64,000 nt of DNA from a virus, in the IMG/VR virus record IMGVR_UViG_3300007609_000013, positions 10,129 to 74,128 of that record; one strand, given 5' to 3'. Shown piece after piece: positions 2,827 through 36,406 of this stretch. Below the pieces are notes generated by a model. It did not search any database. It saw nothing but the letters and a program-made list of their open reading frames with translations, and had not been told where the DNA came from. The position numbers were made by a program, and so were the translations under genes. Position 1 is the first letter of the stretch. Each line of letters starts with the position of its first letter.

Positions 2827-3399
2827 ATGAAATCGTTTAAACATTATCTCACAGAGAGTGTTAAAGAATACAATTATAGATTGAAGTTTGCTGATTTGCC
2901 AGAAGAGTTTGACTTTGGCAAACTAGAAACAGCACTTGAAAAGTTTAGTTTGGTAAGTGTTGCCAAGCCTAAAAAGACTCCTATCCAAGAGCACCCAGCA
3001 GACTTTCAAACTCTACAAAATGCAGAGGTACACATCATTGATGCTACCGTGGCATACCCGGTATCCAGCGTAGAGCTTCACAATTATCTTCATACTGCAC
3101 TTGGTGTTGCTCCAAGTCATCTTGTGGTAATCAACAAAGATCATCCAGAAGAAATTGCCAGAGAACAGCAAGTGGAAGCCGAAGACGAAGAATACGAAAC
3201 AGCACTGGGCAACGATTATCCAGACGATGGTATTAAATCACAGGAATATTTCGGCGATGAATACAATGCAAATCTTATCAAAGAACTAACTTCTAACAAA
3301 GAACTAGTTCAAGCCGAAGGTGGGAAAACTCCTGCCGCAACTACACTGGCCGATGAGCCACAAGGTACAGACAGCCCGATCAGCGGAGGAGAAAAATAA
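2827..3399 (+). CDS. acidic putative virion-internal protein
   Basis: starts MKSFKHYLTES (resembles T4 capsid-targeting sequence); TAAATA and AGGA upstream. Confidence 0.6.
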   Translation: MKSFKHYLTESVKEYNYRLKFADLPEEFDFGKLETALEKFSLVSVAKPKKTPIQEHPADFQTLQNAEVHIIDATVAYPVSSVELHNYLHTALGVAPSHLVVINKDHPEEIAREQQVEAEDEEYETALGNDYPDDGIKSQEYFGDEYNANLIKELTSNKELVQAEGGKTPAATTLADEPQGTDSPISGGEK

Positions 3400-5920: not shown

Positions 5921-6687
5921 TGGAAATACTACCAGCTTCTCGTAATTTTGCAAACGGTACTTTTGATTTCTATCCCAGCGATACTAAAAAGTTGTTCGAA
6001 ACTAACAAGAAAAATTTCGGACCTAGCTGGGAGTTTTACAACAAGCCAATATTTTATGTGTGCAATGAATTTGGTTTCAGAGAGCAGAAGCTAAACACTA
6101 TAGATTGGACTAACAGCACAGTGTGTTTTGGTTGTAGTCATACTTTTGGTATAGGTGTTCCGGATAACGAGACCTGGGTAAGAAAATTACAAAAAAAGAC
6201 CAGCACACCTTGTGTAAACTTGGGCATACCGGGCGGAAGTTTTGAAGCTATTTTCCACAACATAGTATGGCTAAACTATCATAATATAACGCCAAAAAAT
6301 TTAATTGTACAAATTCCTGACCCGAGTCGTAATTATTATGTAGAAACCGAAATCGATCATCCTGCGTTTTGTCATATTATTCCAGAGCTACACGGAGTAA
6401 TCTCTCAAAAAAACATGCAATACTACACAGATGTTCATCTAGCACACAAATTAGAACTAATGAAAACAACCATCGATCTATTGTGCCCGGACATGGATGT
6501 GGTGTACTTTTTTCTTGGTTGCCCTAGTGCTGCAAAAAGTTTTTCTCTAAAACGACCTGTTTATTTCGATCAAAAACAGTATCCGAATATACATTGGGCT
6601 AGAGATCGTTCGCACTTTGGCAGTACAGTATCCGATGCAATTGTAGAGTTGGTGTGCCAGCTGTCAAGCAATCTTGGCAGAGTTTAG
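5917..6687 (+). CDS. SGNH-like protein
   Basis: N.FGFR, FGCSHTFG.GV, NLGIPGGS, ARD.SHFG. Confidence 0.65.
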   Translation: MMEILPASRNFANGTFDFYPSDTKKLFETNKKNFGPSWEFYNKPIFYVCNEFGFREQKLNTIDWTNSTVCFGCSHTFGIGVPDNETWVRKLQKKTSTPCVNLGIPGGSFEAIFHNIVWLNYHNITPKNLIVQIPDPSRNYYVETEIDHPAFCHIIPELHGVISQKNMQYYTDVHLAHKLELMKTTIDLLCPDMDVVYFFLGCPSAAKSFSLKRPVYFDQKQYPNIHWARDRSHFGSTVSDAIVELVCQLSSNLGRV

Positions 6688-7185
6688 ATATTGTCCCCAG
6701 CTGTGATGCTGTAGATGAATTTTGTTTTTCTTTTTCCTGGCTAATTCCCAGTAAGTAGGAGTATAAGGTTGATTAATAGGCTTGATCAATCGCGATCCTT
6801 TGATGCTGTTGCAACTTTTACAACTAGCTACACAGTTTTCCCAATCTGTACCCCCTCCTAGACTGCGTGGAATAACATGATCAACAGTTAGTTCACTTTG
6901 TGAAAAAAGTTCTCCACAATACTGACAATTGAATGTGTCTCTCAAAAATAGATTGTTTCTGCTGAATTTGGCTTCTTGAGGAATGCCATAGTATTTGTGA
7001 GTAACGCACACTGCTGGCATTTCCAGTGTGGTGCTAGGTGAATGAATCAGTTTGTCTTCGTAGGTGTGCAAAACATGAACACGATTGAGCCAGTGTAGTT
7101 TTACGGCCTGCTGCCACGCTACTACACTGAGGGGTACAAAACTAATTGGCCGGTAATCAGCATTCAAAATTAGTGTATTGCTCAT
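6664..7185 (-). CDS. HNH endonuclease (McrA-like)
   Basis: LNADY.P, RD...CQYCG, TVDHVIPRS.GG...WEN.V..C..CN..KG. Confidence 0.9.
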   Translation of the reverse strand: MSNTLILNADYRPISFVPLSVVAWQQAVKLHWLNRVHVLHTYEDKLIHSPSTTLEMPAVCVTHKYYGIPQEAKFSRNNLFLRDTFNCQYCGELFSQSELTVDHVIPRSLGGGTDWENCVASCKSCNSIKGSRLIKPINQPYTPTYWELARKKKNKIHLQHHSWGQYLNSAKIA

Positions 7186-7968: not shown

Positions 7969-8211
7969 ATGCAACCTCAATGGCGATTAACCACCATTCA
8001 GGTATACTACTACTTGCCTGATGTTGAACTAGACCTTACTAACTTGTTTTTGTGGCAAGCAATGGATCGCTATCCCTACTTTCCAAGAATGCATCGTTTT
8101 GTAGATCATTGGCAGGAAAAAATCGAAGCTCGGTTGGACAGAGTGTATATACAACACACAGATCCGTTTGATCACAAATGCTATAGGAATGTTTTGTTAA
8201 TCAATGAGTAA
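7969..8211 (+). CDS. Usg-family protein
   Basis: LTT...YY.PD...F.WQ..D..P.FP..HRF.D.W....E..L pattern of the Usg family. Confidence 0.65.
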   Translation: MQPQWRLTTIQVYYYLPDVELDLTNLFLWQAMDRYPYFPRMHRFVDHWQEKIEARLDRVYIQHTDPFDHKCYRNVLLINE

Positions 8212-9781
8212 AAGCTTAGATGGAGTGCTGGTAAAAAAGGCCTACAAGCCTCAGCAGTACACACAACATCAATTGCTGGAATTTGCTAGATGTGCAGACC
8301 GAGATACAGGCCCGCACTATTTTCTCGAACACTATTTTTACATACAGCATCCTACTCGTGGCCAAATGTTGTACAAGCCTTTTGAATATCAAGTGGGCCT
8401 AGTAGACAACTATCACAACTATAGATTTAGTATAAATTTACTCAGTAGACAGATGGGCAAAACCACCACAGCCGCAGGCTATTTGTTGTGGTATGCTATG
8501 TTTGTGCCCGACAGTACCATACTGATTGCAGCTCACAAATACAGTGGCGCACAAGAGATCATGCAGCGGGTGAGATATGCTTATGAACTCATGCCTGATC
8601 ACATTCGCGCAGGTGTAACCAGCTACAACAAAGGCAGCATAGAATTTGAAAATGGCAGTCGTATTGTGGCACAAGCCACTACAGAAAACACCGGACGTGG
8701 TATGAGCATAAGCTTGTTGTACTGTGATGAGTTTGCGTTTGTGCGCAATACAATAGCCCGAGAATTTTGGACAGCCATCAGCCCTACACTGGCTACAGGT
8801 GGTAAGGCTATCATAACCAGCACACCTAACAGTGATGAAGATCAATTTTGGGAACTGTGGTTGGGTGCAAACAAAAATCTAGACGAGCACGGCAACGAAA
8901 CCGAGCTGGGCGTCAACGGCTTTAGAGCATACCGTGCTCTGTGGCATCAACACCCAGACAGAAACGATGAGTGGGCAGCAGAAGAACGTGGACGCATCGG
9001 CGAAGAACGCTTTCGTAGAGAAATGGAGTGCGAGCCGATCATCTTTGATGAAACACTCATAGCTGCAACCACACTCATACAGCTAGAACCCTCACAGCCA
9101 GTGCACATCACCGAAGGCAATGTGAGATGGTTTGACACGCCCAAAAAAGATCGACAGTATCTGGTGGCACTGGATCCAAGTTTGGGCACCGGAGGAGACA
9201 ACGCTGCCATACAGGTGTACGAAATGGGCGGTGCCAACGGCTTACAACAGATAGCAGAGTGGTACCACAACCGCACACCCATTCGCGGACAGATCGGCAC
9301 CATGGTGAAAATCAATCGCTATATATTAGATCACATCAACAATCCCACAGCCATATGGTACAGCATAGAAAACAACAGCTTGGGCGAAGCCGGCTTGGTG
9401 GTGATCGAAGACATCGGCGAAGAAAACATTCCCGGTATGTTTGTGAGTGAGCCAATCCGCAAAGGACATGTGCGCAAGTTTCGCAGAGGCTTTAACACCA
9501 CGCACAGAAGCAAGCTAACAGCGTGTAGCAAGCTCAAAAGCTGGATCGAGACCAAACGTATGCATGTGTGTTCAAAAGCACTAATAACCGAGCTTAAAGC
9601 ATTCATACAAAGCAGCAACAGTTTTTCAGCCAAGCCTGGCGAGCACGACGACCTAGTGATGAGTACAGTGCTGGCAGTGAGAATGGCTATGCAGATTCAA
9701 CAGTATGATGCAGACCTAGACAGTCAGTTCAAAGACGACATCGACGACTATGTAGAACCCATGCCATTTGCTATTCTTTGA
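8204..9781 (+). CDS. terminase large subunit (T4 gp17-like)
   Basis: SRQMGKTT Walker A, LLYCDEFAFV Walker B, ITSTPN, LDPS.G.GGD nuclease start, HDDLVM. Confidence 0.95.
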   Translation: MSKSLDGVLVKKAYKPQQYTQHQLLEFARCADRDTGPHYFLEHYFYIQHPTRGQMLYKPFEYQVGLVDNYHNYRFSINLLSRQMGKTTTAAGYLLWYAMFVPDSTILIAAHKYSGAQEIMQRVRYAYELMPDHIRAGVTSYNKGSIEFENGSRIVAQATTENTGRGMSISLLYCDEFAFVRNTIAREFWTAISPTLATGGKAIITSTPNSDEDQFWELWLGANKNLDEHGNETELGVNGFRAYRALWHQHPDRNDEWAAEERGRIGEERFRREMECEPIIFDETLIAATTLIQLEPSQPVHITEGNVRWFDTPKKDRQYLVALDPSLGTGGDNAAIQVYEMGGANGLQQIAEWYHNRTPIRGQIGTMVKINRYILDHINNPTAIWYSIENNSLGEAGLVVIEDIGEENIPGMFVSEPIRKGHVRKFRRGFNTTHRSKLTACSKLKSWIETKRMHVCSKALITELKAFIQSSNSFSAKPGEHDDLVMSTVLAVRMAMQIQQYDADLDSQFKDDIDDYVEPMPFAIL

Positions 9782-10847
9782 GGTTGATTTTTATTCGGTG
9801 GTGGTTTCTCACCTGTGATGTAGACTCCACGCTCTGATCTTTCCACACACCACAGGTGTTTTCGCATCTGCTGCATCTACCTTTGTCAACACTGGATTGT
9901 TGCCAACTGTGTTCCAACTGTTGAAACCATTTTATACTTTTGGCCAGCCCGTGGCGCAGTGCATTGTTTCTCCGAATAAACTTTCTCAGCTGAACAGTTT
10001 CTGGATTGTAAACTGAGTAGTCCGGATTGGCAAATGCAGTAAAACAACAGGGATACACAAAGCCCCTGCTGTCCACATATATGCTGTTGATGTGACTGCA
10101 ATCTATGCTATCAGCTGGACGACGGGATGCGGGCATGTGTTTCCCTGTGTCGGTTTGGTCATAGGCCAGGATCCTGCTGACACGGGCATAATCCGTGTCA
10201 CCTTGCCAATCTCCAATGGTGTGTGAGAGGTTGCCGTCTTTGTCAAATGCTATGCCTACACTGCGCCCGTGATTTTCCATGGAGAACAAGGAAAAGCCCC
10301 AAGCATCGGCCAGCTGTTGAGCCTGAGCTGCTTGATGCTGGTTGTGATCAAACACTATGAACTTCCACTGTGCATCTCCTCCTGCAGCTATGAAAGCACC
10401 AAAATTTCTCTGCAGCACCTGCCAGTCCACATCCTGCCGATAGAGATGATTGGTGTCTTCCAAGCCGTCTATGCTGAATCTCACAGTCAAGTTGGGCACA
10501 GCAGCCAACTGTTGCCACCATGTCTCGCTTCTAGCGCCACCATTGGTGGTTACTTCCAGCTTCAACTGTGGGTTGGCCTCAGCAAAGTACCACAGTATGT
10601 CCGCCAGCTGAGGATTCATAATAGGATCGCCAAAGTTGCCTTCGCAGAGGAATAACTCTAGCTCGCTGATAAACTCTGCGGAGAATATTTGTTTGACCTC
10701 TGCCAATGACAGATGATGCTGAACCACTCTAGGATCTGCCACACCGTGATCATTTCTAGGACAGATAGGACATCTGGCATTGCAGTAGCTGGTGGGTTCT
10801 AGATGCACTCTGCGTATTTCTGCACCGCTGCTGAAACTGGTTTTCAT
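9771..10847 (-). CDS. radical SAM protein with SPASM/twitch-like C-terminus
   Basis: CNARCPIC motif, GNFGDP, FSIDGL, YPCC; start at MKTSF, 5 nt after TAAATA. Confidence 0.85.
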   Translation of the reverse strand: MKTSFSSGAEIRRVHLEPTSYCNARCPICPRNDHGVADPRVVQHHLSLAEVKQIFSAEFISELELFLCEGNFGDPIMNPQLADILWYFAEANPQLKLEVTTNGGARSETWWQQLAAVPNLTVRFSIDGLEDTNHLYRQDVDWQVLQRNFGAFIAAGGDAQWKFIVFDHNQHQAAQAQQLADAWGFSLFSMENHGRSVGIAFDKDGNLSHTIGDWQGDTDYARVSRILAYDQTDTGKHMPASRRPADSIDCSHINSIYVDSRGFVYPCCFTAFANPDYSVYNPETVQLRKFIRRNNALRHGLAKSIKWFQQLEHSWQQSSVDKGRCSRCENTCGVWKDQSVESTSQVRNHHRIKINLKE

Positions 10848-10892
10848 GCATCTATTTAGCGCAATCTGCGGCTTGCGCGCCCATGCCACCTC

Positions 10893-11101
10893 AACGAGCG
10901 AAGCGAGCTTGCGATTCACGCAAAAAATTTCGCACCACAGCAACACTAGTAGTGATCAACACACAGTCACCCTCCAGGTTGTACACCACATACTGCCAAG
11001 TGTTCAATCGCACCAAACTTCGTCTAACTTGCATGCAGTTATTTACACACGAGTGCTCAGGCCCGGGCCCAGGCCACTCAAACGAGCGAAGCGAGCTTGC
11101 G
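10893..11101 (+). repeat. 21-bp direct repeat AACGAGCGAAGCGAGCTTGCG (two copies)
   Basis: exact copies at 10893-10913 and 11081-11101, each followed by CGCAAAAA. Confidence 0.9.
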
Positions 11102-11179
11102 GCGCAAAAACAATTTTTGCACTTTTCTCACTCACAGTCAGCTGCACACCAGTAAATACAACACCAGCCAAGGACACTG

Positions 11180-11434
11180 ATGAGCAGTCGCAGCATACTA
11201 TTCCCGGTTAACAAAAAGCATGATCGCATGGTGCGTGAGTTCTGCAGACGCAACACTTTCGCACGACTGTTGCAGTGGAGCAGTCGCCACGGAACACTAC
11301 TGTGTGTTCACAACACCGACCGTAGACGTGGCATAGTGATCAGCTTTGAAAACGAGCGCACACTCACCGCATTTGCCGTCAGTTGGCATCACACAGAAAG
11401 CTGGTTGCAGTGGGAACTCAGCAGCTATGAATAG
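11180..11434 (+). CDS. hypothetical protein
   Basis: TAAATA and AAGGA upstream. Confidence 0.5.
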   Translation: MSSRSILFPVNKKHDRMVREFCRRNTFARLLQWSSRHGTLLCVHNTDRRRGIVISFENERTLTAFAVSWHHTESWLQWELSSYE

Positions 11435-11699
11435 CCACACACCTGTGATAGTGTTCACTGGCATCAGTGGCAGCAATCATCACACAGTAAACTGGAGTAG
11501 AATGAATGTGTTAGAACATGTGTTGGCATGGGCTGGTCACCACCGCACTAGAATATGTGTGCATGCCAACCGCAACAGTGTGCTGCACATACAACACTTG
11601 GACAGTGCACACTGGCTGTTGTGGCAGCTCACATGGAATCCTCAACAGCAACCTAGACTAGGCTACAGCACAATGAATACCACAGTGCATTCACCTTAG
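11427..11699 (+). CDS. hypothetical protein
   Basis: overlaps the previous stop; similar C-terminal 'W.L.W' character. Confidence 0.4.
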   Translation: MNSHTPVIVFTGISGSNHHTVNWSRMNVLEHVLAWAGHHRTRICVHANRNSVLHIQHLDSAHWLLWQLTWNPQQQPRLGYSTMNTTVHSP

Positions 11700-12037
11700 C
11701 CGGCCGAGGCAGTACAGCCCCCCCTATAGTGCAGCCAAAAAAAAATTGTGTGCGCAGAATCAGCAAACCCAAAAACACCACCCCCAGGAGCTTTTTGCAC
11801 CCTAGGATATACACTGTGGAGATCTATGCTAGATCTAGTAGCGCACTTCGTTTGCTACTGGTGTGAGAGTTTTCTGTGAGGTGGAATTTCCCATGGGGTC
11901 ATGGGGCCAATAGTGTGACCAGAAAAATTCTTGCGTCGGTTTGTCAAAGGGGGCAGTTTTTTCACCCCCACCACTTTTATACCCCTGACGTTTTTTTTCT
12001 CACCGAAAAAAATATTTTTCTCAATGAAATCAAAAGG

Positions 12038-12317: not shown

Positions 12318-12626
12318 TTATGCCGCCTCCTCTACTGTTAGCATGCTGGCTGGCACACGATAGGTGGTGTTGAACATGCCGTTGCTGACGCCGCCCAACA
12401 CTTCCACTGTCTTGCGATTCTTTTTGACTACTCGGCCAACCACCCGGGTACCGTTTCGTGCAGTAAAGCTTACCACATCACCTTTGACAATCTTGCGAAT
12501 GTTTGCTCGGCTCAGTTGCCGTTCCTTGTTGCGAATTGCATCGTAGATGTCACGCAGTTCATCCATGGTCTCTAATGCGTAGATGGCTGTGACGGCATCT
12601 GCTGTGCGTGTGAATGATGTGCTCAT
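12318..12626 (-). CDS. SH3/KOW-like small early protein
   Basis: KGDVVSF...G.V.KKNRKTVEV...YRVPASML; GGAG RBS. Confidence 0.7.
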   Translation of the reverse strand: MSTSFTRTADAVTAIYALETMDELRDIYDAIRNKERQLSRANIRKIVKGDVVSFTARNGTRVVGRVVKKNRKTVEVLGGVSNGMFNTTYRVPASMLTVEEAA

Positions 12627-12841
12627 GCATATACTCCTACTGCAAGTGGAAGTTCTTCAATGCTAACATTGCCTCGGAGTGGTTGGATGTATTCCAGTGG
12701 ACAGGTGTGTACTTCCTCTGGTGCGTAACGATCCGAGAAGTACACAACACCGTTGTCATCAACTCGATCCACAATACCATACACTGTGGGGAACTGTGCA
12801 CCCCAGTGGCCGTAAATCTTGTCGCCTGGTTTGATCTGCAT
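12623..12841 (-). CDS. hypothetical early protein
   Basis: start MQIKPGD with AGAGGA RBS and sigma70-like promoter. Confidence 0.65.
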   Translation of the reverse strand: MQIKPGDKIYGHWGAQFPTVYGIVDRVDDNGVVYFSDRYAPEEVHTCPLEYIQPLRGNVSIEELPLAVGVYA

Positions 12842-12873
12842 ATTGATTTCCTCTATGACTAACCTACACACTA

Positions 12874-12901
12874 ATAATAACATGTGTAGGCCAGTTGTCA
12901 A
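12874..12901 (-). promoter_or_regulatory. sigma70-like early promoter
   Basis: TTGACA-N16-TATTAT; -10 lies inside the 8-bp inverted repeat CCTACACA/TGTGTAGG. Confidence 0.7.
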
Positions 12902-12942
12902 CCTCGGAATCCGTTTTTTTTGAAATTTATGGGCCGGAGGGC

Positions 12943-13060
12943 TGTGGATAAGTCTGTGGATTGAGGCATTTAACATAATAGCGGTTATGCGCGGACTGTG
13001 GATTGTTTGGTCGGGGTTTGTGCACAGGTTATCCACAGCTTTTGCACACTAGTGTGCACA
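12943..13060. promoter_or_regulatory. DnaA-box cluster
   Basis: TGTGGATAA 12943, TTATCCACA 13029, TTTTGCACA 13040, TTGTGCACA 13018, plus degenerate copies at 12955, 12997, 13052. Confidence 0.7.
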
Positions 13061-13061
13061 G

Positions 13062-13137
13062 TGGCTGCCTGAGCAGGACTCGAACCTGCGACCAAAAGAT
13101 TAACAGTCTTCTGCTCTACCTGCTGAGCTATCAGGCA
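13062..13137 (-). tRNA. tRNA-Asn(GTT)
   Basis: cloverleaf, anticodon loop CTGTTAA, TTCGA T-loop, encoded CCA. Confidence 0.95.
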
Positions 13138-15934: not shown

Positions 15935-16011
15935 TGGTGGACCCACCTGGACTCGAACCAGGGACCAATGAATTATGAGTTCACTGCTCTAACCAACTGA
16001 GCTATAGGTCC
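15935..16011 (-). tRNA. tRNA with CAT anticodon (probably Ile2, possibly elongator Met)
   Basis: GGACCTATAGCTCAG..., loop CTCATAA, paired 1:72, A73-CCA. Confidence 0.85.
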
Positions 16012-16020
16012 TACTCTGTT

Positions 16021-16048
16021 ATTATAACACACTGTGCACATGTGTCAA
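16021..16048 (-). promoter_or_regulatory. consensus sigma70 promoter for the tRNA operon
   Basis: TTGACA-N16-TATAAT ending 10 nt before the first tRNA. Confidence 0.8.
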
Positions 16049-16230
16049 CGGGCAGCATTGATCAATTCCACTGCCAAGCGATACTCCGCTGCATTGTCAT
16101 CCTCGCGGTCGTTGTTGTAAACCAAGCGTGTGTCCGGCCTCCTACGATTCTGATATTCATAGGCTGCCTGTTTGTCGTCAGTGCTGAACACCACGCGATT
16201 GTCACAATCTACCAGCAAAAATCTCTGCAT
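16045..16230 (-). CDS. hypothetical early protein
   Basis: GAGG RBS before MQRFLLVD. Confidence 0.5.
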   Translation of the reverse strand: MQRFLLVDCDNRVVFSTDDKQAAYEYQNRRRPDTRLVYNNDREDDNAAEYRLAVELINAAR

Positions 16231-16246
16231 GTTATACCTCATGATG

Positions 16247-16559
16247 TTATAAGTCACCGCTGAATGTGCTCCAGGTAATCTGCTTTTCATCTACTTTTAT
16301 GCAGTTATACCCTTCGCGTTTAAATGCTGCCAGTGGAGGACAGTCTCGTCTGCCGCCTAGATCACTCTCCAGTGGCTGGATCACCACTCGGCCGAGTGGT
16401 GAAATCCACCACCACACCAGGCAGGAGTCTACCATTGTGCACAGCCACCACGTGGTCACCTGGAGCTAGATCGGCGCCGAACACATCTTTTCTCCATCGA
16501 TCCAGCACAGTAAAGTTTGTTAGGCCGAATTCGCCGCGTCTAGGCGTGTACTTTTTCAT
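16247..16559 (-). pseudogene. frameshifted SH3-like early gene
   Basis: two overlapping ORFs join if one C is removed from the 22-bp palindrome at 16381-16402. Confidence 0.55.
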
Positions 16560-16652
16560 CGCGCCACTCTAGAATAAGCAATGTCACCTTGACGACCAGT
16601 CTTGCGATCATTGACCGGCCCGAACAAGCGAATCAACCTCAGTGTGTTCATG

Positions 16653-16949
16653 TTATACCCCCATGGTCTCTGCAGCAGCCGAATATTCCACAGCAACCCG
16701 CTCCACTCGATCATCGTAGTCTAGGCTGGTTTCAAAAGGAATATACCCCGTGTCACCCTCACGTCCAAAGCCTGCACCATCCTGTTCAATCTGAATGGTG
16801 TATCCGTCAAACAACATGTAAGCACCTTCCGGATTTCGCACTGCACCTTTGGCAATCACTGTGCCTTGGATATATGCGTCTCGGCGACCCATGAAGTCAT
16901 ATGCACGAATCGTGTCGCCAACAGCAGCCAAATTCTGATATTTCAACAT
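16653..16949 (-). CDS. hypothetical early protein
   Basis: VGD.IRAYDF motif; AGGAG RBS; TTGACT-N16-TATACT upstream. Confidence 0.7.
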   Translation of the reverse strand: MLKYQNLAAVGDTIRAYDFMGRRDAYIQGTVIAKGAVRNPEGAYMLFDGYTIQIEQDGAGFGREGDTGYIPFETSLDYDDRVERVAVEYSAAAETMGV

Positions 16950-17235
16950 GTTGTAGTCTCCCTAACCTCTATACATGTAGTATACAGTGTTATAGCATAG
17001 AGTCAATCAGAAAACGCTGCAGCAGCAAAGTTAGAATTGTGTGCACAGTCAACAGGTTAGCACCAATATCTAGAATACTGTGAGGCGGTAGTGTGAAAAA
17101 GTGTGAAAATATCACAATATACCAGAATATACTGAGTTATATCTGGCATTGCCTATGAGGTTCCGGCGGATGGCATGCTCGTACGGTGACTATAATAGTG
17201 ATTCAACCAGATCTGCTGCAGCAGCAACTTGACAG

Positions 17236-17481
17236 TTAGTAGTCAATGTCTGGATCCACTATGCCTTTGATGGTGAGAGCATGCTGAACACTGGTGATTT
17301 GTGCTTGAACAGCCGCTGTATAGCTTGCCACTTGACCGTTTACAGCTAAGCGTGCGGTTTCACGTGTTAAGAATTCTGAGAAATATGCGTCTGCACGTGG
17401 ATTACCGTAGAGCAGGTGATAACAGTGACGCAGCTTTGTCAACAGTGCTTTGTGTTGTGCGTAGTTTGTTGTTTTTTTCAT
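17236..17481 (-). CDS. hypothetical protein
   Basis: TAAATA 4 nt upstream of ATG. Confidence 0.5.
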   Translation of the reverse strand: MKKTTNYAQHKALLTKLRHCYHLLYGNPRADAYFSEFLTRETARLAVNGQVASYTAAVQAQITSVQHALTIKGIVDPDIDY

Positions 17482-17702
17482 TGGTGTATTTACTCGAGAA
17501 CCATGGTTTTAATACCCCTACTCTTGTATCTTTGCTGTCTCTCTGCCACACAATTCAACACAATTCAACACTTTGACACACACTGTATTTTTTTATCGTA
17601 CAGCATCACATGATGGGATTTTTTTGGTTGCTGTTGAGTGTGTTTTCATATATAGTATACAGAGACAGAGCAGTGTCTCTGCACAGGAGTTTTTCACAGC
17701 AC

Positions 17703-18291
17703 ATGCATATCAGTTGGCACACACATCCATGGACACACTGTGTGATTGATGAGGTTTTTGCACCCCATGAACTCGCACAGGTGCGTGAGTTTGTGGCATC
17801 AGATCACAGTGGTACTTTGAATCCAGCTGCTGGCACATATGCTGCCACAGCTGATCTTCCTGCACACATTCACAGTTTGTTCTCACAAAAAAAATCTAGA
17901 GATCTATCACAGTGTGTATGTGGATCTTTGGCGTCGCACACCCGCTCAACACTGGAGCAAACCCATGTCACTGCACCAGTGTGTGAATCACACAGATTTT
18001 GTGCTGGGACAACCTGGGTTTTCATATCCGGTGCACAACCATCATCCAGGCAAGCGATTGGTGTCAGTGGTGTATGCAGGATTCACTGGCGATGGCACAG
18101 TGTTGTGTGATCAGGATCACAGTGACGGCGTGCAGATTCCATGGCAGGAGAATCGTGCAGTGTGTTTTATTTCGCATGGCCACAGTTGGCACAGCTATCA
18201 CAACTGCAGCGTCACGCCGCGGTTCACTGTAAATCTCATGTGGCAACAGGAGTATCCTGGGTTGCCACCCATTCAACAGGAGTCATCATGA
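17703..18291 (+). pseudogene. 2OG-Fe(II) oxygenase-like gene with a frameshift in an A8 run
   Basis: PW.H.VID.VF N-terminus in one frame; YPVH.H..GK, W..NRA..F, SWH, R.T.N in the next; shift at 17887-17894. Confidence 0.6.
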
Positions 18292-18632
18292 GCACACATG
18301 ACATCAACATAAATTTAAACATCTCTTTGACAGTGCACACAGATGGATCAGTGAGTGTGGCTGGTGTGAGCACACAGGATCAGTCAGCGGTGGGCGCATC
18401 ACCAGACTCTGCTGTAGGAGAGCCAGCTGAGCCACTGGGTGCAGATGAACTGCGTGAGTTGGCCGCGCCTTATAAGAAGAGTTTTGTGATTTCGCGCAAA
18501 GAGTTGGAAGCTCTCACCAAAGACGAAATCATTGCACTAGGTCAAGGCATGCTGGGTGTTGACATCTACAAGCGACAGCACAAGGATGATATCATAGCTG
18601 AGTTTTGGAGAGAGTATCGTGCTAGAAACTAG
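18288..18632 (+). CDS. hypothetical protein with Rho-N/HeH-like C-terminus
   Basis: AGGAG RBS; LEALTKDEIIALG...KDDIIAEF. Confidence 0.6.
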   Translation: MSTHDININLNISLTVHTDGSVSVAGVSTQDQSAVGASPDSAVGEPAEPLGADELRELAAPYKKSFVISRKELEALTKDEIIALGQGMLGVDIYKRQHKDDIIAEFWREYRARN

Positions 18633-19679
18633 TGCATGGTGCAGCACCGGTGCGTGTTTGGGTTCCAGCAGCTGAGCTATGTCAAAACCTGTGCTTCCTT
18701 TTGTTGAAACCATGATCACGTATGCATGCAATCTCAGTTGTGCTGGCTGTACCAACTACAGCGACTACAACATGAAAGGCAGTGTGCGTTGGGCAGAAGC
18801 AAAACAATGGCTGTTGGATTGGATTGAACGCATTGACATACCTGACTTTGGCATCATAGGAGGAGAACCCACGCTCAACCCTGAATGCAAACAATGGATC
18901 TACGGTGTCCGGCAACTGTTGCCCAACAGTCAAATAAGATTTACAACCAACGCTGTAAACTTTCATCAAAACTCACAAATACTAGACTGGTGTGTGGACA
19001 TTGGCAACTGTGTACTGAAGTTTAGCCTGCACCAAGACTTGCCCTATGCCCAAGCTGCAGTTGAACACGTGTTTGGTGCATACCAGTGGAAGCCCATCAC
19101 TGAATACGGTATAAATCGCTGGATAGGACCCAACAACACTCGTTTTCAGATCAACAGCCCAGCACAGTTTGTCAAAACCTATCGCGGCAATTTTGGCAAT
19201 ATCCGTCCGCATCACAGTTCGCCGGCTGCAGCTTTTGACATGTGTGTACAACAACAGTGTCCACTGCTGTATCAAGGAAACATCTACAAGTGCAGCAGTA
19301 TTGCGCTGTTGAATCGTGTGCTGGAGGAGTGGAATCAGCCCGTGACCAATGATTGGCAACCATACACGGATTATCAAGGCATCTCACCTGCTAGTTCTCA
19401 CCAGGAGATTTCCAAATTTATTCAAAACTTTGGCCGGCCTCACCGGATTTGCGCCATGTGTCCCAGCAAAAAAGACACAAACAGCATTATTGATCATAAA
19501 TCAAATGTGATATCAAAAAAACAATGGGTTAAACTGCGCAATGTTTAATTTGTACCTGGTGCAAACAGTGGACAAGTACGGACCAAACAGTTTTTTACCC
19601 TTGGCCGTGAGTTATCAATGGTTGGATGATATCATAGCAGAGTTTTGGAAAGAGTATTGTGCTAGAAACTAGTCCATGG
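18584..19679 (+). repeat. 56-bp imperfect direct repeat flanking a 1040-bp unit
   Basis: 18584-18639 versus 19624-19679, 4 mismatches. Confidence 0.9.
18679..19548 (+). CDS. radical SAM protein
   Basis: CNLSCAGC, IIGGEP.LNP, IYKC, C.MCP. Confidence 0.9.
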   Translation: MSKPVLPFVETMITYACNLSCAGCTNYSDYNMKGSVRWAEAKQWLLDWIERIDIPDFGIIGGEPTLNPECKQWIYGVRQLLPNSQIRFTTNAVNFHQNSQILDWCVDIGNCVLKFSLHQDLPYAQAAVEHVFGAYQWKPITEYGINRWIGPNNTRFQINSPAQFVKTYRGNFGNIRPHHSSPAAAFDMCVQQQCPLLYQGNIYKCSSIALLNRVLEEWNQPVTNDWQPYTDYQGISPASSHQEISKFIQNFGRPHRICAMCPSKKDTNSIIDHKSNVISKKQWVKLRNV

Positions 19680-20498
19680 CCCGGCATCACCACCAAAGAT
19701 CTCCACAATCACCCGGTGCCTCGGTTGCTTTTCCCACCAGGAACTAGTCAAGAAACCTATCCTAATAGCGCCACCATACCAGTGTTTCGCAACAGTCTAG
19801 GATACAGAACTGCAGAGTTTGACAGTGTAGGAGAGCATGTGCTGTGCTTGGGAGACAGTCGCACCGAAGGCATGGGTTTGTTGTCTAGCGAGCGCTGGAG
19901 CGATCTTGTGGGTCAGCAGTTAGAGTGTGATGTGGTCAATCTTGGTGTGCGTAGCATAAGCATGGACGCTATATATCTGCTTGCAGCTGCTTGGGTGCAA
20001 CATCGCCAACCATTGGCTGTGGTAGTTCAGACACCTCCTATGGTAAGGCACAGTGTATGGCACGATGTAGCGGGCGTTCCGCGTGCACACTGGTGCAATC
20101 TACACAGTAATTCTCACAGAAACCAGCGTGACAAAAAATCCTTAAGTGCAGCATACATGAACTTAGCTGAAGCTAGTATATACAATTTTGAGCATGCATG
20201 GGTTATCAATTTGTTGGCTGTACAAAATCTCTGTGCTGCTAAACAAATACCTTATTTTGCCTGGAGCTTTGACACTAAGGAAGATCAAAATACGCAAGTG
20301 TTTGACCTCTGTGAAATACTTGGCGCACAGGTGGAGCACAACCAATACAATGACAAAAACAACAGTTTGCCCATAGGTCATCCAATGGCAAACGTTTGGC
20401 CCGAAAACCACCTAGCCGCGGATGATGCTCACAGTGATGCAGACTGCAATCAAAAGTGGGCACAGCGTGTAATATTGCAACTGCCACAACTGCGCTAA
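19659..20498 (+). CDS. SGNH-like protein
   Basis: NSLGYR, LGDSRTEG.G, VNLG, ADDAH; start uncertain. Confidence 0.6.
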   Translation: MLETSPWPGITTKDLHNHPVPRLLFPPGTSQETYPNSATIPVFRNSLGYRTAEFDSVGEHVLCLGDSRTEGMGLLSSERWSDLVGQQLECDVVNLGVRSISMDAIYLLAAAWVQHRQPLAVVVQTPPMVRHSVWHDVAGVPRAHWCNLHSNSHRNQRDKKSLSAAYMNLAEASIYNFEHAWVINLLAVQNLCAAKQIPYFAWSFDTKEDQNTQVFDLCEILGAQVEHNQYNDKNNSLPIGHPMANVWPENHLAADDAHSDADCNQKWAQRVILQLPQLR

Positions 20499-20506
20499 AT
20501 ACAACT

Positions 20507-23155
20507 ATGAATATCAGCACAGATCTCTACAACAAATTAGTAGCACGTTTTCCTAGTCTAAGCATGGGCACACAAACTGCCGAAAGCACTGCCGATCCTG
20601 AAGAAGCAAGATTGTTTACCTTTGAATACGTGGAACAAGATCATGAACTAGGCACAGTCACAGTCAGCTTGCTGGCACCTGGCACACTGGAAATCATCTA
20701 CAGTCGAGGCATCACTGATGCTGTGAAAGACACAGACAACTGGTTTGATTTTTTGCACAGCATGCGAAGATTTAGTGTGCGCAACGCACTGGATTTTGAA
20801 GTACAGGACATCAGCAAGCCGGCACTTAGTCAACAAGATCTTGAAACTCGCAGTCAGCGAGCTACACCGCCAGTGGTAGGCGAAGGCCGCATGTGGGGCA
20901 GTAGAAAAACCTCATATCAAAAGTTGCCTGCTGTCAAACTGATTGTGAGACACACCTCACCAGTGGACACTGAACGCAGAGGCGCACGCAGCCGACGCAT
21001 ACATAAAATTTTTGCAGAAACTGCTGTAGGTGAAAGATTTTTGCTGCCAACCACCAGTGTGCCTGTGGCCAGAGTGTATGCCCAACACATTGCTGCAGGT
21101 GGCAAGCCCTGGGACAGCATAGCTGAACACATCACAAGATTGGCAGAACAACCACAGGGGCGTGCGCAGGTCAAGCGTGCCTGCACAGCACCTGGATACC
21201 AAGCTTTGATTGCTGCCATACAAGAGGAAAACAACAACATGGAATTACAACTCACAGAAGATCCAGCAGACGACCTGCTGGTGGCCAGTGCAGACTATGC
21301 TCGACCAGCTGACATGCTGGCAGCAGTGATGGCACTGATTGCCAGAAGAAGCACCAACCCACAGGTGGTGGAGTTTGCACAAAACTATACCCAAGACACA
21401 GCTGGTGCGATTGATCTGGCTAGACAGTGGATTGCCAGTGTGCAGGAAGGTCAGTCAGTGGAAACCACACAGCCACCGGCACAAGATCCCTCTGGGGAGT
21501 TTGACCAGTGGACACACTGGGTCACAGAGAGTGCGGAAGCCGCAGGGGCACTGCAAAATCTTGCACTGGACATGACAGGCGAAGATCAAGAAGACGTGGT
21601 GCGAATTGCACTGATGATCAAAGATGGTGCAGAGATTGAAGACATTCGCAGAGAAATATTGGATCTTGACACTGCACCGCGTGAAGAGATTCTTCGCACC
21701 ATTGATGACTTTGACAGTGACTTTTTAGCAATGTTGTTTCCTGTGGATCATGAAGAAAGCTACTACGCTGTGATGCGTGAGAATCCTGCGGCACCGCGGG
21801 ATCCAAGCAAAAGTGGTGGCAGTGGATATGATTTGTACCACAAAGATTTCTCAAGTGCGATGCAACACGCATACGACTATGCCAAGAACAAGTTGGGTGT
21901 TGACATTGACCCACAAGAGATTGATCACAAGGTTGCAAGTGGTCCTCGCAAACCATCCGCAGGCAAGACCAACATCTATCGTTTGATGGACAAAGATGGT
22001 AAGAAAGCAGTCCAGATTCAAGTTGCTAATCTCGACGATAAGAAGTTTGAACTCAACATGTATAAAGAGTCTGTAGAAATGAATGAAGCAAAATCTAAGG
22101 AACAGCAGATTGCCGATTTAGAAAAGATGTTAGGTCGTATCAGTGGCAACACTGCTTCAGTGAGAATGAAGAAGTTTGCTCTTCAGAAAAAGATTGATAA
22201 GTTGAAGAACGAAGAAGTTGAACTGGACGATGACGAATTTCACAAGGGCATGCATGTCAAACTAGGCGGTGATCCAGACAAGTTTGTTCCGCATAGAAAT
22301 CGTCCAACCACAGGCGATCACGTAGAACTGAAAGTGCCCAAAAGATATCGTAAAGCACAGGATGTGATCATAAAGATGTTTGCAAAACTCACTGGTATTG
22401 ATCCTAGTAAACTGGACGTAGATTACACAACAGGAAGTCGTACAGTAATGATCGACGGTGAAACACCTCATCCAAGCATACTAAGTGCTCTCAACGGTAC
22501 ACTGGACAAGCTGGACACAGGCGAAATAACAGGATTGTACGAAGCATTCACCACTGCTATTGCACTTGAACCTAGCTTGGGCGACGAATACAAAACAGCA
22601 GTTGACATCATCAGCAAGTATCGTCCGCAGGGTGTGACCGCAGAGCCTGAAAAAATGGATGATCACTATGAAATTGTGGTTGATGGTCCTGCCAAAGCAA
22701 TGCGTGAATTGGAACGTGAAATCCGAGCGGCTGGTGTGAGAATGCGAGCCACAGAAGATGCAGAAGCTGTGATCAGCGATGTGGACGAGGACGACGAAAT
22801 TGTGCTGGGTAACGTGGAAGTAGACGGTACACCAGTTGAAAAATTTGTGTTGTATCCTATGGGCGGTGGTGTAGATGCATTTGGCAAAACCTTCAACAGC
22901 ATGGAAGACATGTTGAAGTATGCTGAACAACAGCACGGCGGAGTCGCTGAAGCTGTGGAAGACCTTGAAGAAGACAATGCATTCAACACAGCGGCAGCCG
23001 AAGCGGCACTGGCTGACAAAAAAGAGTTTGAATTCAACGGCAAAACATATCCTGTAAAAATGAGCAAGGAAGCTGCCCGCAAGTTGGTGGGTGAGAACTT
23101 GGATCATGATTCGGCACTTGATCACATAAAGCAATTAGCAGGCTTGTTGCGATGA
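20507..23155 (+). CDS. large mosaic acidic protein, putative head-internal polyprotein
   Basis: 882 aa, Glu-delimited modules, C-terminal IKQLAGL; ATG 5 nt after TAAATA. Confidence 0.7.
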   Translation: MNISTDLYNKLVARFPSLSMGTQTAESTADPEEARLFTFEYVEQDHELGTVTVSLLAPGTLEIIYSRGITDAVKDTDNWFDFLHSMRRFSVRNALDFEVQDISKPALSQQDLETRSQRATPPVVGEGRMWGSRKTSYQKLPAVKLIVRHTSPVDTERRGARSRRIHKIFAETAVGERFLLPTTSVPVARVYAQHIAAGGKPWDSIAEHITRLAEQPQGRAQVKRACTAPGYQALIAAIQEENNNMELQLTEDPADDLLVASADYARPADMLAAVMALIARRSTNPQVVEFAQNYTQDTAGAIDLARQWIASVQEGQSVETTQPPAQDPSGEFDQWTHWVTESAEAAGALQNLALDMTGEDQEDVVRIALMIKDGAEIEDIRREILDLDTAPREEILRTIDDFDSDFLAMLFPVDHEESYYAVMRENPAAPRDPSKSGGSGYDLYHKDFSSAMQHAYDYAKNKLGVDIDPQEIDHKVASGPRKPSAGKTNIYRLMDKDGKKAVQIQVANLDDKKFELNMYKESVEMNEAKSKEQQIADLEKMLGRISGNTASVRMKKFALQKKIDKLKNEEVELDDDEFHKGMHVKLGGDPDKFVPHRNRPTTGDHVELKVPKRYRKAQDVIIKMFAKLTGIDPSKLDVDYTTGSRTVMIDGETPHPSILSALNGTLDKLDTGEITGLYEAFTTAIALEPSLGDEYKTAVDIISKYRPQGVTAEPEKMDDHYEIVVDGPAKAMRELEREIRAAGVRMRATEDAEAVISDVDEDDEIVLGNVEVDGTPVEKFVLYPMGGGVDAFGKTFNSMEDMLKYAEQQHGGVAEAVEDLEEDNAFNTAAAEAALADKKEFEFNGKTYPVKMSKEAARKLVGENLDHDSALDHIKQLAGLLR

Positions 23156-30739: not shown

Positions 30740-31829
30740 AATAAAATTATTTGCTCCGATGAGTAGTAAGGCTGTTGCGGGCATGCAATCGTGGCTGGAT
30801 AACAACTCACATGTGGTTGGCTTTGAAATGTACACATCTTCGAGAATAGCAAACAATATTATACAAAACGATTGTTTTTTAACCCTAACCGAATGGCAAT
30901 ATTTTCTTGAATGTGACGCTGTGGTATTGTTTGGAACATGGGGTAGCACGCACCCAGACCGACAACTTACACCTAATTCAACACTAGACCTATCTTGTGT
31001 AAAAAGACAAGCCTATTTGGAATACATCAACAGAAACATGGTGGATCTTTGCAAAAAGTATCATAAACCAATCATTGTTATAGAAACTGCTACCTACAGC
31101 AGAACAAGGGCAAATCATCTAGATGAATGGCATCTCAAAGGTGTTAAGCCGAGGTATTATAGGATGGGCATAAATCACTGGACCTGGAGTAGAACCACAT
31201 GGTGCGATGCATCCATGGACGAAGGCAACAGAGACCTAATTTTTTACAATAAGTTTGAAGAGTATGCAAAAAAACCTTTTCCTATAAACAGACGCAGATG
31301 GCGACACAATCTCAAAGGTGATGTATACATTGTTGCCGGCCTTGAGCATGATCCGACCAGCAACGAATCTATAGATCGATGGATACAAAAAAGCATTAGA
31401 AAAATTCAACAGCATTCTACTAGAAAAATTATTGTGAGATCGCATCCGCTCAGCAGTCTTGACTATGAAGAAATTCTCAAAGACTTTGATTCAAAAAAAG
31501 TAAGTTATATCCCCGAAGAAAAACAGCAGACTATCAAAGATGACAGCAAAAAAATGTATTGCGCTGTGGTAGACAGCAGTACCAGCGTGTTTGAACTGTT
31601 AGATTTAGGAATTCCTGTTTTTTGTACTGAACACAGTTTTGCTGCACCTTTTGGCAACACTGATTTATCAAAAATCGAAAAGCCTGTTCTCAAAGACAAA
31701 AAATTCTACTCGCAATGGGTGCAACAAATGTGTTACACTGAGTTTTCTTTTGGTGAGTTCACAGAAGGGCAAATTTTTAAATATATAAGAAAATTACTGG
31801 ATAAGTATCACACAATAGGAATCAATTAA
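30732..31829 (+). CDS. KpsS-like GT-B protein
   Basis: VRSHP, SSTS..E....GIPVF, YTEF...E. Confidence 0.55.
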   Translation: MNKIKLFAPMSSKAVAGMQSWLDNNSHVVGFEMYTSSRIANNIIQNDCFLTLTEWQYFLECDAVVLFGTWGSTHPDRQLTPNSTLDLSCVKRQAYLEYINRNMVDLCKKYHKPIIVIETATYSRTRANHLDEWHLKGVKPRYYRMGINHWTWSRTTWCDASMDEGNRDLIFYNKFEEYAKKPFPINRRRWRHNLKGDVYIVAGLEHDPTSNESIDRWIQKSIRKIQQHSTRKIIVRSHPLSSLDYEEILKDFDSKKVSYIPEEKQQTIKDDSKKMYCAVVDSSTSVFELLDLGIPVFCTEHSFAAPFGNTDLSKIEKPVLKDKKFYSQWVQQMCYTEFSFGEFTEGQIFKYIRKLLDKYHTIGIN

Positions 31830-32998
31830 TGTATAGTTTAGCACACGACACCTGGGATCAGCGCGAAGTTGATGCTCTACAAAAAGTAATATCCAGCGGT
31901 AGGTATACCATGGGCCCACAAGTAAAAGAATTCGAGCAACAGTTTGCCAAATATGTGGGCTCAAAACATGCAATTATGACCAACAGTGGTAGCAGTGCAA
32001 ATCTGGTTGCACTCACGGCCTTGGTTCAAAATCCACGTTATGACTTATCGCCTGGTGATGAAGTGATTGTACCTAGTGTAAGCTGGAGCACTACGTATTT
32101 TCCTGTGCATCAAAACGGGCTTGTGTTAAAATTTGTTGATGTAGACAGATCTTCACTTAATCTGAATATTGATCTTGTAAAAAACGCCATCACAGAAAAA
32201 ACCAAAGCAATTTTTGCTGTAAACCTATTAGGCAACAGTTGCGAATTGCAACTGCTCAAAAACATCTGTGAACAACATAATCTGGTGTTAATTGAAGATA
32301 ATTGCGAAAGTTTTGGCGCTATGCACGATGACAAATATTGTGGAACTTGGGGTGCTGCCGGTACTTTTAGTTTTTTCTTCAGTCATCACTTGCAAACAAT
32401 GGAAGGAGGAATGGTAGTAACCAACGACAGCGATCTTGCAGATTATATGCGAAGTATTCGAGCTCACGGTTGGGTAAGAGACTTGTCTCCTCAAAATAGT
32501 TTGTATGAGCACACAGGCAACAGTTTTGAAGACAGTTTCCGGTTTGTTCTTCCAGGATATTGTGTTCGCCCACTTGAAATGAGCGGCGCAGTTGGAAAAG
32601 TACAGTTGGAAAAATCCATAGAAATGTTGTCCCAGCGCAACGCTAACGCGATGGCGTATCACGAGCTGTTTGACGACTTTGATGTAGTACAAACTCAAAC
32701 GCCTACTATACCTGGACAGCACAGCTATTTTGGTTTTAGTCTTATACTACAAAATCAACTTGCTGGTCGCAGAGAGGAAGTTGTCGAACTATTCAAACAT
32801 CACGGTATCGAGTGCCGTCCTATTGTGGCTGGCAACTTTGTGCGCAATCCTGTGATCAATAGACTCAATCATATTCGAGAAGATCAATATCCTGTTGCTG
32901 ATGATATCCACGACAACGGATTCTTCTTGGGCAATGATAATCGTGTGCTGGTTGAAAGTTTATGCAAAGTAAAAGAACTATTAGAGAGTTTGGTATGA
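31829..32998 (+). CDS. colD: DegT/DnrJ-family PLP enzyme, ColD-like GDP-4-keto-6-deoxymannose 3-dehydratase
   Basis: NSGSSANL, EDNCES, SFFFSHHLQTMEGG (His in place of the Schiff-base Lys, as in ColD); adjacent to gmd. Confidence 0.8.
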   Translation: MYSLAHDTWDQREVDALQKVISSGRYTMGPQVKEFEQQFAKYVGSKHAIMTNSGSSANLVALTALVQNPRYDLSPGDEVIVPSVSWSTTYFPVHQNGLVLKFVDVDRSSLNLNIDLVKNAITEKTKAIFAVNLLGNSCELQLLKNICEQHNLVLIEDNCESFGAMHDDKYCGTWGAAGTFSFFFSHHLQTMEGGMVVTNDSDLADYMRSIRAHGWVRDLSPQNSLYEHTGNSFEDSFRFVLPGYCVRPLEMSGAVGKVQLEKSIEMLSQRNANAMAYHELFDDFDVVQTQTPTIPGQHSYFGFSLILQNQLAGRREEVVELFKHHGIECRPIVAGNFVRNPVINRLNHIREDQYPVADDIHDNGFFLGNDNRVLVESLCKVKELLESLV

Positions 32999-36367: not shown

Positions 36368-36406
36368 GCGAGTATTTATTGAGTAAATATACAACGAGAG
36401 CATTCT

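Follow-up and report, generated by a model that had tools for sequence, protein, structure and literature searches.

Why does a virus that encodes its own replication proteins carry a tight cluster of binding sites for the bacterial protein DnaA? The question is raised by an intergenic element of about 120 bp (positions 12943-13060) in the window, our name for the whole 64,000-nucleotide stretch analysed here, which comprises bases 10129-74128 of a single virus record of 74,128 bp (IMG/VR IMGVR_UViG_3300007609_000013; estimated 21% complete). Its large terminase is 52% identical to that of the Pseudomonas jumbo phage PA5oct and 42-50% identical to those of Atu_ph07, Phosso and Rak2-like phages. 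Its replication genes encode a gp32-like single-stranded DNA-binding protein (SSB), UvsX, UvsY, a DnaB-like helicase, a primase, a piece of a DNA polymerase, helicases and an exonuclease; a ribonucleotide reductase is encoded as well. On the grounds of this terminase kinship and gene set, the window is a piece of a roughly 350-kb phage with its own replisome, the latter as an initial annotation made from the letters alone had said. That annotation read the element as a helically phased array of DnaA boxes and offered three roles for it: a decoy that titrates host DnaA, an early origin primed by host DnaA, or DnaA-responsive control of the adjacent early promoter. We find support for selection on the boxes, from simulations, shuffles and recurrence in six related phage contigs; none of the three roles is demonstrated and all of them leave out a dif-like sequence at the centre of the element. 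The explanation we prefer, at a probability of roughly 40%, is a plasmid-type Xer recombination site that acts between phage copies, with the phased DnaA boxes as its accessory arms, directly upstream of a strong sigma70-type early promoter.

The boxes lie where the initial annotation had placed them, in the intergenic stretch between a tRNA-Asn gene and the start codon of a minus-strand open reading frame (ORF) of 72 aa (Table 1). Two are perfect and point in opposite directions (TGTGGATAA on the plus strand at 12943, which is TTATCCACA on the minus strand, and TTATCCACA at 13029); they lie 86 bp apart, and neither the 64-kb window nor the rest of the 74,128-bp record contains another perfect TTATCCACA box. 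The site at 13040 fits the consensus TTWTNCACA, and near-matches are present at 12955, 12997, 13018 and 13052, the last being the weakest (two mismatches by the relaxed count, three by the strict). On the right-hand side the boxes at 13018, 13029, 13040 and 13052 follow one another at 11, 11 and 12 bp, and on the left the boxes at 12943 and 12955 are 12 bp apart. Because the sites at 13040 and 13052 together contain a 16-bp palindrome (TGCACACTAGTGTGCA, 13043-13058), these two are ambiguous as DnaA sites.

The clustering of these boxes is not due to chance. TTWTNCACA occurs 25 times in the window against an expectation of 14.4 ± 4.0, a count that none of 100 shuffles reached. When the 74-kb record was simulated 500 times with a second-order Markov model, two perfect boxes fell within 120 bp in a single simulation, six sites with at most two mismatches occurred in 8, and the observed weighted box score of 12 was reached in none (simulated maximum, 9). 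Likewise, 5000 dinucleotide-preserving shuffles of the local 219 bp never produced two perfect boxes or a weighted score of 12 (maximum, 7). Since these shuffles keep the TG/CA richness and never reach the observed density, the local TGTG/CACA background, which the initial annotation had named as the explanation that would undo its reading, does not account for the boxes.

The initial annotation had not remarked on the sequence between the left and right boxes. Here we find a 28-bp dif-like Xer core, which reads TCCGCGCATAA-CCGCTA-TTATGTTAAAT on the minus strand (XerC arm, 12995-12985; central region, 12984-12979; XerD arm, 12978-12968). It has the layout of the dif/cer/psi class, an 11-bp arm, a 6-bp centre and a second 11-bp arm, and matches E. 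coli dif (GGTGCGCATAATGTATATTATGTTAAAT; PMC3025954) at 8 of 11 positions of the XerC arm and at all 11 positions of the XerD arm. At uniform base odds, 19 or more of the 22 arm positions would match by chance somewhere in the record with a probability of about 4e-4. The central region is surrounded by partial dyad symmetry (CATAA ... TTATG), and dyad symmetry of the inner arm positions is a feature of Xer cores according to PMC5357621. The core is unique in the window's record, and carriers have one locus per record. On the basis of its sequence, we regard the centre of the element as a dif-like core to which XerC and XerD would bind. The block GCGCATAW-N5-ATTATGTTAAAT, through which the core was recognised, is common to the window, where it occurs once, and the related loci L083, L098 and L100 described below. 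The core was also considered as a general promoter motif of the phage and rejected as such, ATTATGTTAAAT being present once in the window with its two-mismatch matches at chance level.

The arms of the core are of host type and its central region is not, since the exact arms occur in 64 of 401 sampled Gammaproteobacteria (once in 60 and twice in 4) and none of the 68 dif-type sites sampled there has CCGCTA at its centre, nor the GTGATA of two of the related loci. The central regions of these 68 sites read TGTATA in 36 cases, TATATA in 17, TACATA in 3 and TGCATA in 3, with nine others, and 59 of the 68 fit T[GA][TC]ATA.

Table 1. Features of the composite element and of the DNA on either side of it, in window coordinates.
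Feature	Position	Strand	Remarks
102-aa ORF	12318-12626	-	no family match; related loci were located through its homologues
72-aa ORF	12623-12841	-	first ORF downstream of the promoter; ATG at 12841; no family match
sigma70-type promoter	12901-12874	-	TTGACA at 12901-12896, 16-nt spacer, TGnTATTAT, -10 at 12879-12874
T8 run (A8 on the minus strand)	12914-12921		about -47 to -54 from the predicted start
perfect DnaA box TTATCCACA	12943-12951	-	XerD-arm side; pairs with 12955 at 3-bp spacing
degenerate box CAATCCACA	12955-12963	-	2 mismatches; 4 nt from the XerD arm
dif-like Xer core (candidate)	12968-12995	-	between the left and right boxes
degenerate box CAATCCACA	12997-13005	-	2 mismatches; 1 nt from the XerC arm
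degenerate box TTGTGCACA	13018-13026	+	1 mismatch relaxed, 2 strict; 2 bp from the 13029 box
perfect DnaA box TTATCCACA	13029-13037	+	XerC-arm side; inverted relative to 12943
weak boxes TTTTGCACA (13040) and GTGTGCACA (13052)	13040-13060	+	jointly contain a 16-bp palindrome
tRNA-Asn	13062-13137	-	last gene of the upstream tRNA cluster; bounds the element

The pairing of boxes and core recurs in relatives of the phage. Eighty loci around the large terminase genes of relatives (1.15 Mb) contain no box cluster and have not retained synteny with the window. For the 102-aa protein, 36 homologues with 60-85% identity were found, and an alignment of 22 of the 37 sequences of this family led to 27 metagenome loci, three of which (L083, L098 and L100) have DnaA-box clusters upstream of the gene, each with three to four perfect boxes. 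Among 109 loci the core pattern is found in these three box-cluster loci only, twice in L083, and a dif search with relaxed criteria over 1.29 Mb of related loci gave, beyond these, one five-mismatch match against 0.5 expected. A pattern scan of viral contigs returned at least 119 stretches with a core in very diverse contexts, many of them reading GGTGCGCATAATGTATATTATGTTAAAT. The flanking DnaA boxes set the window's core apart from most of these: of 127 cores examined in the contigs listed and in the related loci, 100 have no DnaA box (at most one mismatch) within 250 bp and 8 have one, and at least four boxes are found at 9 cores, all of them in L083, L098, L100, L121, L157 and L178. Six contigs of related jumbo phages thus have box clusters joined to a core. 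The records to which L121 and L157 belong, of 155 kb and 262 kb respectively, encode terminases 59% identical to the window's, so the element is shared by phages that are deeply diverged within the clade. In the 262-kb record, the locus of the element is the sole cluster of three or more boxes within 300 bp.

Boxes and core are missing jointly from ten other relatives. Five of these, related through the terminase (1.0 Mb in all, one 98% complete), have no core at up to three mismatches and no box cluster; their 12 perfect boxes are scattered, the nearest pair being 4.8 kb apart. The other five are the cultured phages PA5oct, Atu_ph07, Phosso, Vibrio phage 2.275.O and CBB, which have no core at up to two mismatches and in which boxes are scattered as well; three three-mismatch core matches in them compare with one control match. 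When the DNA of the locus was compared with the phage collection, for close and for remote similarity, only tRNAs and a 21-mer from T5-like phages matched, and no relatives of the 102-aa protein or of a neighbouring 455-aa protein were found in viral contigs.

What the carriers have in common are the arms and the boxes; the spacers and the central 6 bp are variable. A single core is present in the window, L098 and L100, where, read on the core's strand, the boxes are of the TGTGGATAA type on the side of the XerC arm and of the TTATCCACA type on that of the XerD arm. The distance from the XerD arm to the first box is 4 nt in the window and in L100 and 15 nt in L098, a difference of 11 nt or one helical turn. 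The perfect box at 12943 aligns with a perfect box in L098 and L100 and the one at 13029 with their upstream perfect box, the degenerate box at 12955 aligns with TTATACACA of L100, and the box at 12997 has no counterpart in either of the two. In L083, L121, L157 and L178 there are two cores in direct orientation, separated by about 95-107 bp, and the boxes all point one way, often as pairs or triplets with an 11-bp period. These four contain further repeats; IHF consensus sites are present in L121, L157 and L178, and in L083 repeated AT-rich units with GATC sites adjoin seven or more boxes. The window's version is minimal, consisting of boxes and core only, and the IHF consensus WATCARNNNNTTR, the AAATGCGAAT palindromes and the GGCCCCGCTG of relatives are absent from it. 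In the five cores that were found independently of the core sequence the arms are kept and the centres are free: CCGCTA in the window, AACATA and TTCGGA in L083, and GTGATA in both L098 and L100. The remaining central variants are GACATA, AAGTTA, TGTGTA, AATATA and TGCATA.

Some smaller features of these loci concern the boxes and their position. Near-palindromes of the form AAATGC(A/G)AAT..ATT(C/T)GCATTT lie beside boxes (L083:2586-2612, 2889-2912 and 3068-3090; L157:1230-1252; L081:1255-1800), and similar repeats, AAATG(A/C)GAATCATT, adjoin the box pairs of the T5-like phage bombadil; no such repeat is present in the window. In L098, L100 and the 262-kb relative (G007), the composite element heads a block of small genes and tRNAs, a position that corresponds to 17000-17300 of the window. 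This divergent intergenic region contains GTGTGAAAA twice in tandem at 17088-17108, that is, two relaxed TTTTTCACA-type boxes.

In the explanation that we favour, the boxes form the two arms of a composite site of about 120 bp and the dif-like core forms its centre. Host XerC and XerD would bind the core, host DnaA would oligomerise on the phased boxes, joined by IHF in the larger versions of relatives, and the complex would recombine two copies of the phage site, thereby converting circular multimers or terminally redundant or concatemeric DNA into monomer circles. The mode would be that of plasmid cer and psi, with DnaA boxes replacing the ArgR/ArcA/PepA accessory DNA. The divergent central 6 bp would prevent recombination with the host's own dif, and DnaA on the boxes may in addition adjust the activity of the strong early promoter, which is 41 bp away. 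Such self-pairing fits because the central region is unlike the host's and is free to drift between phage lineages, as in plasmid sites. The known attP types of integrative mobile elements exploiting Xer (IMEX) are disfavoured since the arms are intact on both sides, and an accessory-dependent Xer site is favoured since sites for architectural proteins hug the core, as in cer, where about 180 bp of accessory DNA accompany the core (PMC5357621). Such sites are general among viral dif-like cores, to judge by the enrichment of the IHF consensus beside them that is described below. That host proteins read the site we infer from four records of the group (G000, G006, G007 and G008; all incomplete), none of which encodes a tyrosine recombinase (PF00589) or a DnaA domain (PF08299, PF00308); the same searches found these domains in 14, 10 and 13 of 14 known genomes, respectively. 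A more specific version of the mechanism, in which DnaA filaments synapse two phage copies and license FtsK-independent XerCD exchange, with cyclisation or monomerisation of the roughly 350-kb genome gated by the initiation state of the host, is conceivable but rather unlikely.

Several points weigh against a recombination site of this kind. Xer binding and recombination at the core are predictions, and all four records are fragments (9-73% complete), so that a phage recombinase could lie off-contig. The accessory DNA of cer and psi lies on the XerC side only, whereas the boxes flank the core on both sides, which would limit the analogy. We know of no Xer system that uses DnaA as a cofactor, and full-text literature searches found no such role for it. 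With T4-like recombination and packaging (UvsX, UvsY and large terminase), the phage would have no obvious need for monomers. The distribution is patchy: the element is present in 3 of 10 loci that have a homologue of the 102-aa gene and at least 2 kb of upstream sequence, and absent from the ten other relatives described above. In L121, L157 and L178 arm conservation is by construction, because the search pattern with which they were ascertained fixed the arms; the independent data in these contigs are the outer arm bases, the central regions and the boxes. Finally, one sequencing run yields a contig that spans 12632-13119 without any change, and the contigs of four runs show no joint at the core (the other runs cover parts of the tRNAs only), an observation that neither supports nor contradicts recombination.

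How does the element compare with known Xer sites? It resembles chromosomal dif in its 28-bp core with 11-bp arms and a 6-bp centre, in the inner dyad and in its single copy per replicon, and differs from it in being borne by a phage rather than lying at a terminus and in having a centre that none of the 68 chromosomal sites has, as well as in its flanking DnaA boxes. With cer (ColE1) and psi (pSC101), as PMC5357621 describes them, it has in common a core centre unlike dif, accessory DNA and a mobile replicon without its own recombinase. Its centre has 6 bp as in psi and dif, against 8 bp in cer. The accessory-like DNA of the window differs from theirs in that it is made up of DnaA boxes (with IHF sites in relatives) and extends for about 25-65 bp on each side, instead of about 180 bp with ArgR or ArcA and PepA; ARG and ArcA boxes were not searched for. 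Because this DNA consists of DnaA boxes on both sides, the element may work like cer and psi without being a member of their class. The loxP/Cre system of P1, in which a site on a large phage cyclises terminally redundant DNA and resolves dimers through a phage-encoded recombinase, offers a functional analogy; here, host enzymes would be borrowed instead.

Among the alternatives, the one that survives best is a plasmid-like replicon, in which the boxes would be a host-DnaA-dependent origin, used early or in a carrier state, and the core its multimer-resolution site. The arrays of oriC also have phased boxes in opposed orientation, and the element has such a cluster; like oriC, datA and DARS, it has boxes of the same orientation that are 2-3 bp apart, and its boxes form two oppositely oriented groups. 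Relatives with larger versions also have IHF consensus sites, AT-rich tracts and repeated motifs, including the GATC-containing units beside the boxes of L083, and a strong promoter adjoins a locus that is unique per genome. The window differs from oriC, datA and DARS in having no DNA unwinding element (DUE), no IHF consensus and no skew inflection, and in the recombination core at mid-element. Its AT-rich DNA amounts to about 18 bp at 12914-12931 (T8 plus GAAATTTAT), with no 13-mer-like repeats. The inflection in GC skew that the initial annotation had proposed to look for is not at the site: the local cumulative minimum of the window is at about 17-18 kb, not 13 kb, and in the 262-kb relative the element, at 61.5 kb, is remote from the global minimum at 186 kb. 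This evidence is weak, because skew follows gene orientation. The phage, moreover, has its own helicase, primase and SSB, and no related element was seen as an episome or prophage, the six terminase matches in the genomes of 185,579 species all being contigs of metagenome-assembled genomes (MAGs). We consider an origin unlikely.

A second alternative is an IMEX-type attP, which would integrate at the host's dif through XerCD, with the DnaA boxes (and IHF) as arm-type sites of a lambda-like intasome. Integration of the inovirus type at dif is documented in 10.1101/633727 and PMC5357621, and the attP of CTXphi, VGJphi, TLCphi and a gonococcal island resemble the window's element as phage-borne dif-like sites without a phage integrase. 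No integrase is encoded in any of the four (incomplete) records, the core is flanked by accessory sites on either side, some of the many small viral contigs that share this core are of inovirus size, and the centre of the first core of L178, TGCATA, is that of 3 of the 68 chromosomal sites. The known attP, however, have a degenerate XerD arm, an atypical centre or a folded single strand (PMC3025954 and PMC5357621), whereas here both arms are intact, with an XerD arm matching dif at 11 of 11 positions and a centre of 6 bp. CCGCTA is the centre of no sampled chromosomal site, no integrated relative was found in bacterial genomes (the six terminase matches all being MAG contigs), the contigs of the four runs show no joint at the core, which is weak evidence from contigs only, and the gene content looks lytic. 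Integration is disfavoured by the central region and the lack of an integrated relative, and we regard it as improbable.

The pattern scan also suggests that the use of Xer by viruses may exceed the known IMEX examples, since those at least 119 stretches have intact dif-type cores and the IHF consensus is enriched beside them. Among the matches listed (L110-L228), WATCARNNNNTTR lies within 100 bp of 47 of 111 distinct viral cores, which corresponds to 2.29 versus 0.15 sites per kb, a 15-fold enrichment; the sites occur on either side, mostly within 40 bp. Many of the core-bearing viral contigs are about 8 kb long and may be inovirus-like. A second, unrelated family of 10-38 kb viral contigs also has a dif-like core (L117, L126, L150, L177, L188, L192, L221 and L226), with TTATCCACA at -134, C/TTNTCCACA at -69 and an IHF-consensus site at about -45 (for example, L150:1360-1530). 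In L150, this element lies within the 330-bp gap between the small and large terminase genes.

The third alternative, also named by the initial annotation, is control of the early promoter at 12901-12874 and nothing else, by DnaA and perhaps by XerCD as passive binders. This promoter has 11 of 12 hexamer matches plus a TG extension and is predicted to drive the 72-aa and 102-aa ORFs, the first of which has a GAGGAA resembling a ribosome-binding site ahead of its ATG. The T8 run, the only AT-rich stretch adjoining the boxes, is positioned where an UP element would sit. The nearest box is 41 bp upstream of the -35 hexamer, and promoters follow the element in L098, L100, L121 and L178 as in the window, being of the TTGACA/TATAnT type in the relatives. 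The distance from element to promoter nevertheless varies widely among relatives, equally strong early promoters of the window (16048-16021 and 17006-16979) have no boxes, and selection on both Xer arms would be left unexplained. As the sole function of the element, promoter control is improbable; as an added role it is plausible.

The early promoters of these phages have further sequence features. Inverted repeats of the form ACACA...TGTGT span the spacer or the -10 region of early sigma70-type promoters (window 12858-12895 and 16021-16048; L098:480-500), the first of these being CCTACACA-N10-TGTGTAGG, and the palindrome TGTGCACA lies in the promoter spacer of a tRNA-Met. The repeats may be operators for a repressor of early genes, and explain part of the TG/CA richness. 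The motif ATAGGCCCCGCTG occurs about 30-40 bp ahead of early promoters in three relatives (L098:228-240 and 436-448; L100:459-471 and 646-658; L083:2041-2053) and is absent from the window's record.

A DnaA decoy, or a datA/DARS-like element that titrates or re-charges host DnaA, with the core as a second decoy or unrelated, was the remaining suggestion of the initial annotation. Boxes of the high-affinity type would multiply with genome copy number, and relatives combine box pairs with IHF consensus sites, as datA and DARS2 do. Of the box cluster and essential IHF site of datA and DARS2, the window has the cluster alone, WATCARNNNNTTR being present in L121, L157 and L178. A decoy would leave unexplained the strict pairing with an intact Xer core and the phasing kept between core and boxes, and there are only two perfect boxes per genome copy. 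T5-like phages carry untranslated pairs of DnaA boxes in the injection-stop (iss) region (10.1101/866236), including a 21-mer, CTGTGGATAAGTCTGTGGATT, that is exactly common to them and the window. Like the phage studied here they are virulent phages with their own replisome, with box pairs 3 bp apart (12943 and 12955 in the window) in untranslated DNA beside the earliest genes. The T5-like bombadil differs in having no dif-like core at up to three mismatches, and T5 itself in that its boxes lie in the large IRC/IRD inverted repeats of the terminal repeat; the function of the T5 boxes is unproven too. We judge a decoy to be very improbable.

That the element has no function, being a chance similarity or the decaying remnant of captured host DNA, might explain its patchy distribution but is barely credible, given that the simulations reject a chance origin and that boxes and arms are conserved across 59%-identical terminases while the spacers have diverged.

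What would a recombination site between phage copies add to the known viral uses of Xer? Filamentous phages, gokushoviruses, non-tailed vibriophages and islands are known to carry dif-like sites. In the full-text literature, subscription journals and supplements excluded, we came across no account of a dif-like site with DnaA boxes on its flanks, nor of an Xer site in a jumbo phage. What appears to be new is a conserved element that joins an Xer site and DnaA boxes in large tailed phages, each of the two being known singly elsewhere. If functional, it would mean that a giant phage docks two host chromosome-maintenance machines at one unique site, and it would suggest that phages taken to be purely lytic pass through a circular or episomal stage. 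Were DnaA indeed to license Xer exchange, the protein would gain a new role, and the element would be the first Xer site in use by a tailed jumbo phage. The 120-bp element is a simple, clonable substrate for the question of DnaA as a recombination cofactor, and may illuminate the boxes of T5.

The element lies within a block, from about 17000 down to 9771, that is transcribed leftward from similar promoters and contains six tRNAs. No intrinsic terminator was found after the tRNA-Asn gene, and in an Rfam search of the locus three tRNAs were the only matches. A structured RNA on the minus strand was considered (fold z-score -3.6, which stems from the inverted perfect boxes and the palindromes) and rejected, because the pairing is missing in relatives whose boxes all share one orientation. 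The G+C content is 46-50% at 8000-12000 and 16000-22000 of the window and 37-42% elsewhere, in partial overlap with the minus-strand early and tRNA block.

Elsewhere in the window, two helicase-like ORFs (42809-43834 and 44707-45585) have an endonuclease-like ORF (43848-44756) between them, and a free-standing HNH endonuclease is encoded at 6664-7185; this layout suggests homing-endonuclease activity and a split helicase gene. The window also contains three radical-SAM genes (9771-10946, 18679-19548 and 60427-61404) and, at 31829-38605, a run of genes for sugar-nucleotide enzymes (an aminotransferase, an epimerase, a heptose kinase/adenylyltransferase-like protein and a glycosyltransferase), which together may form a cluster for the modification of DNA or of surface glycans.

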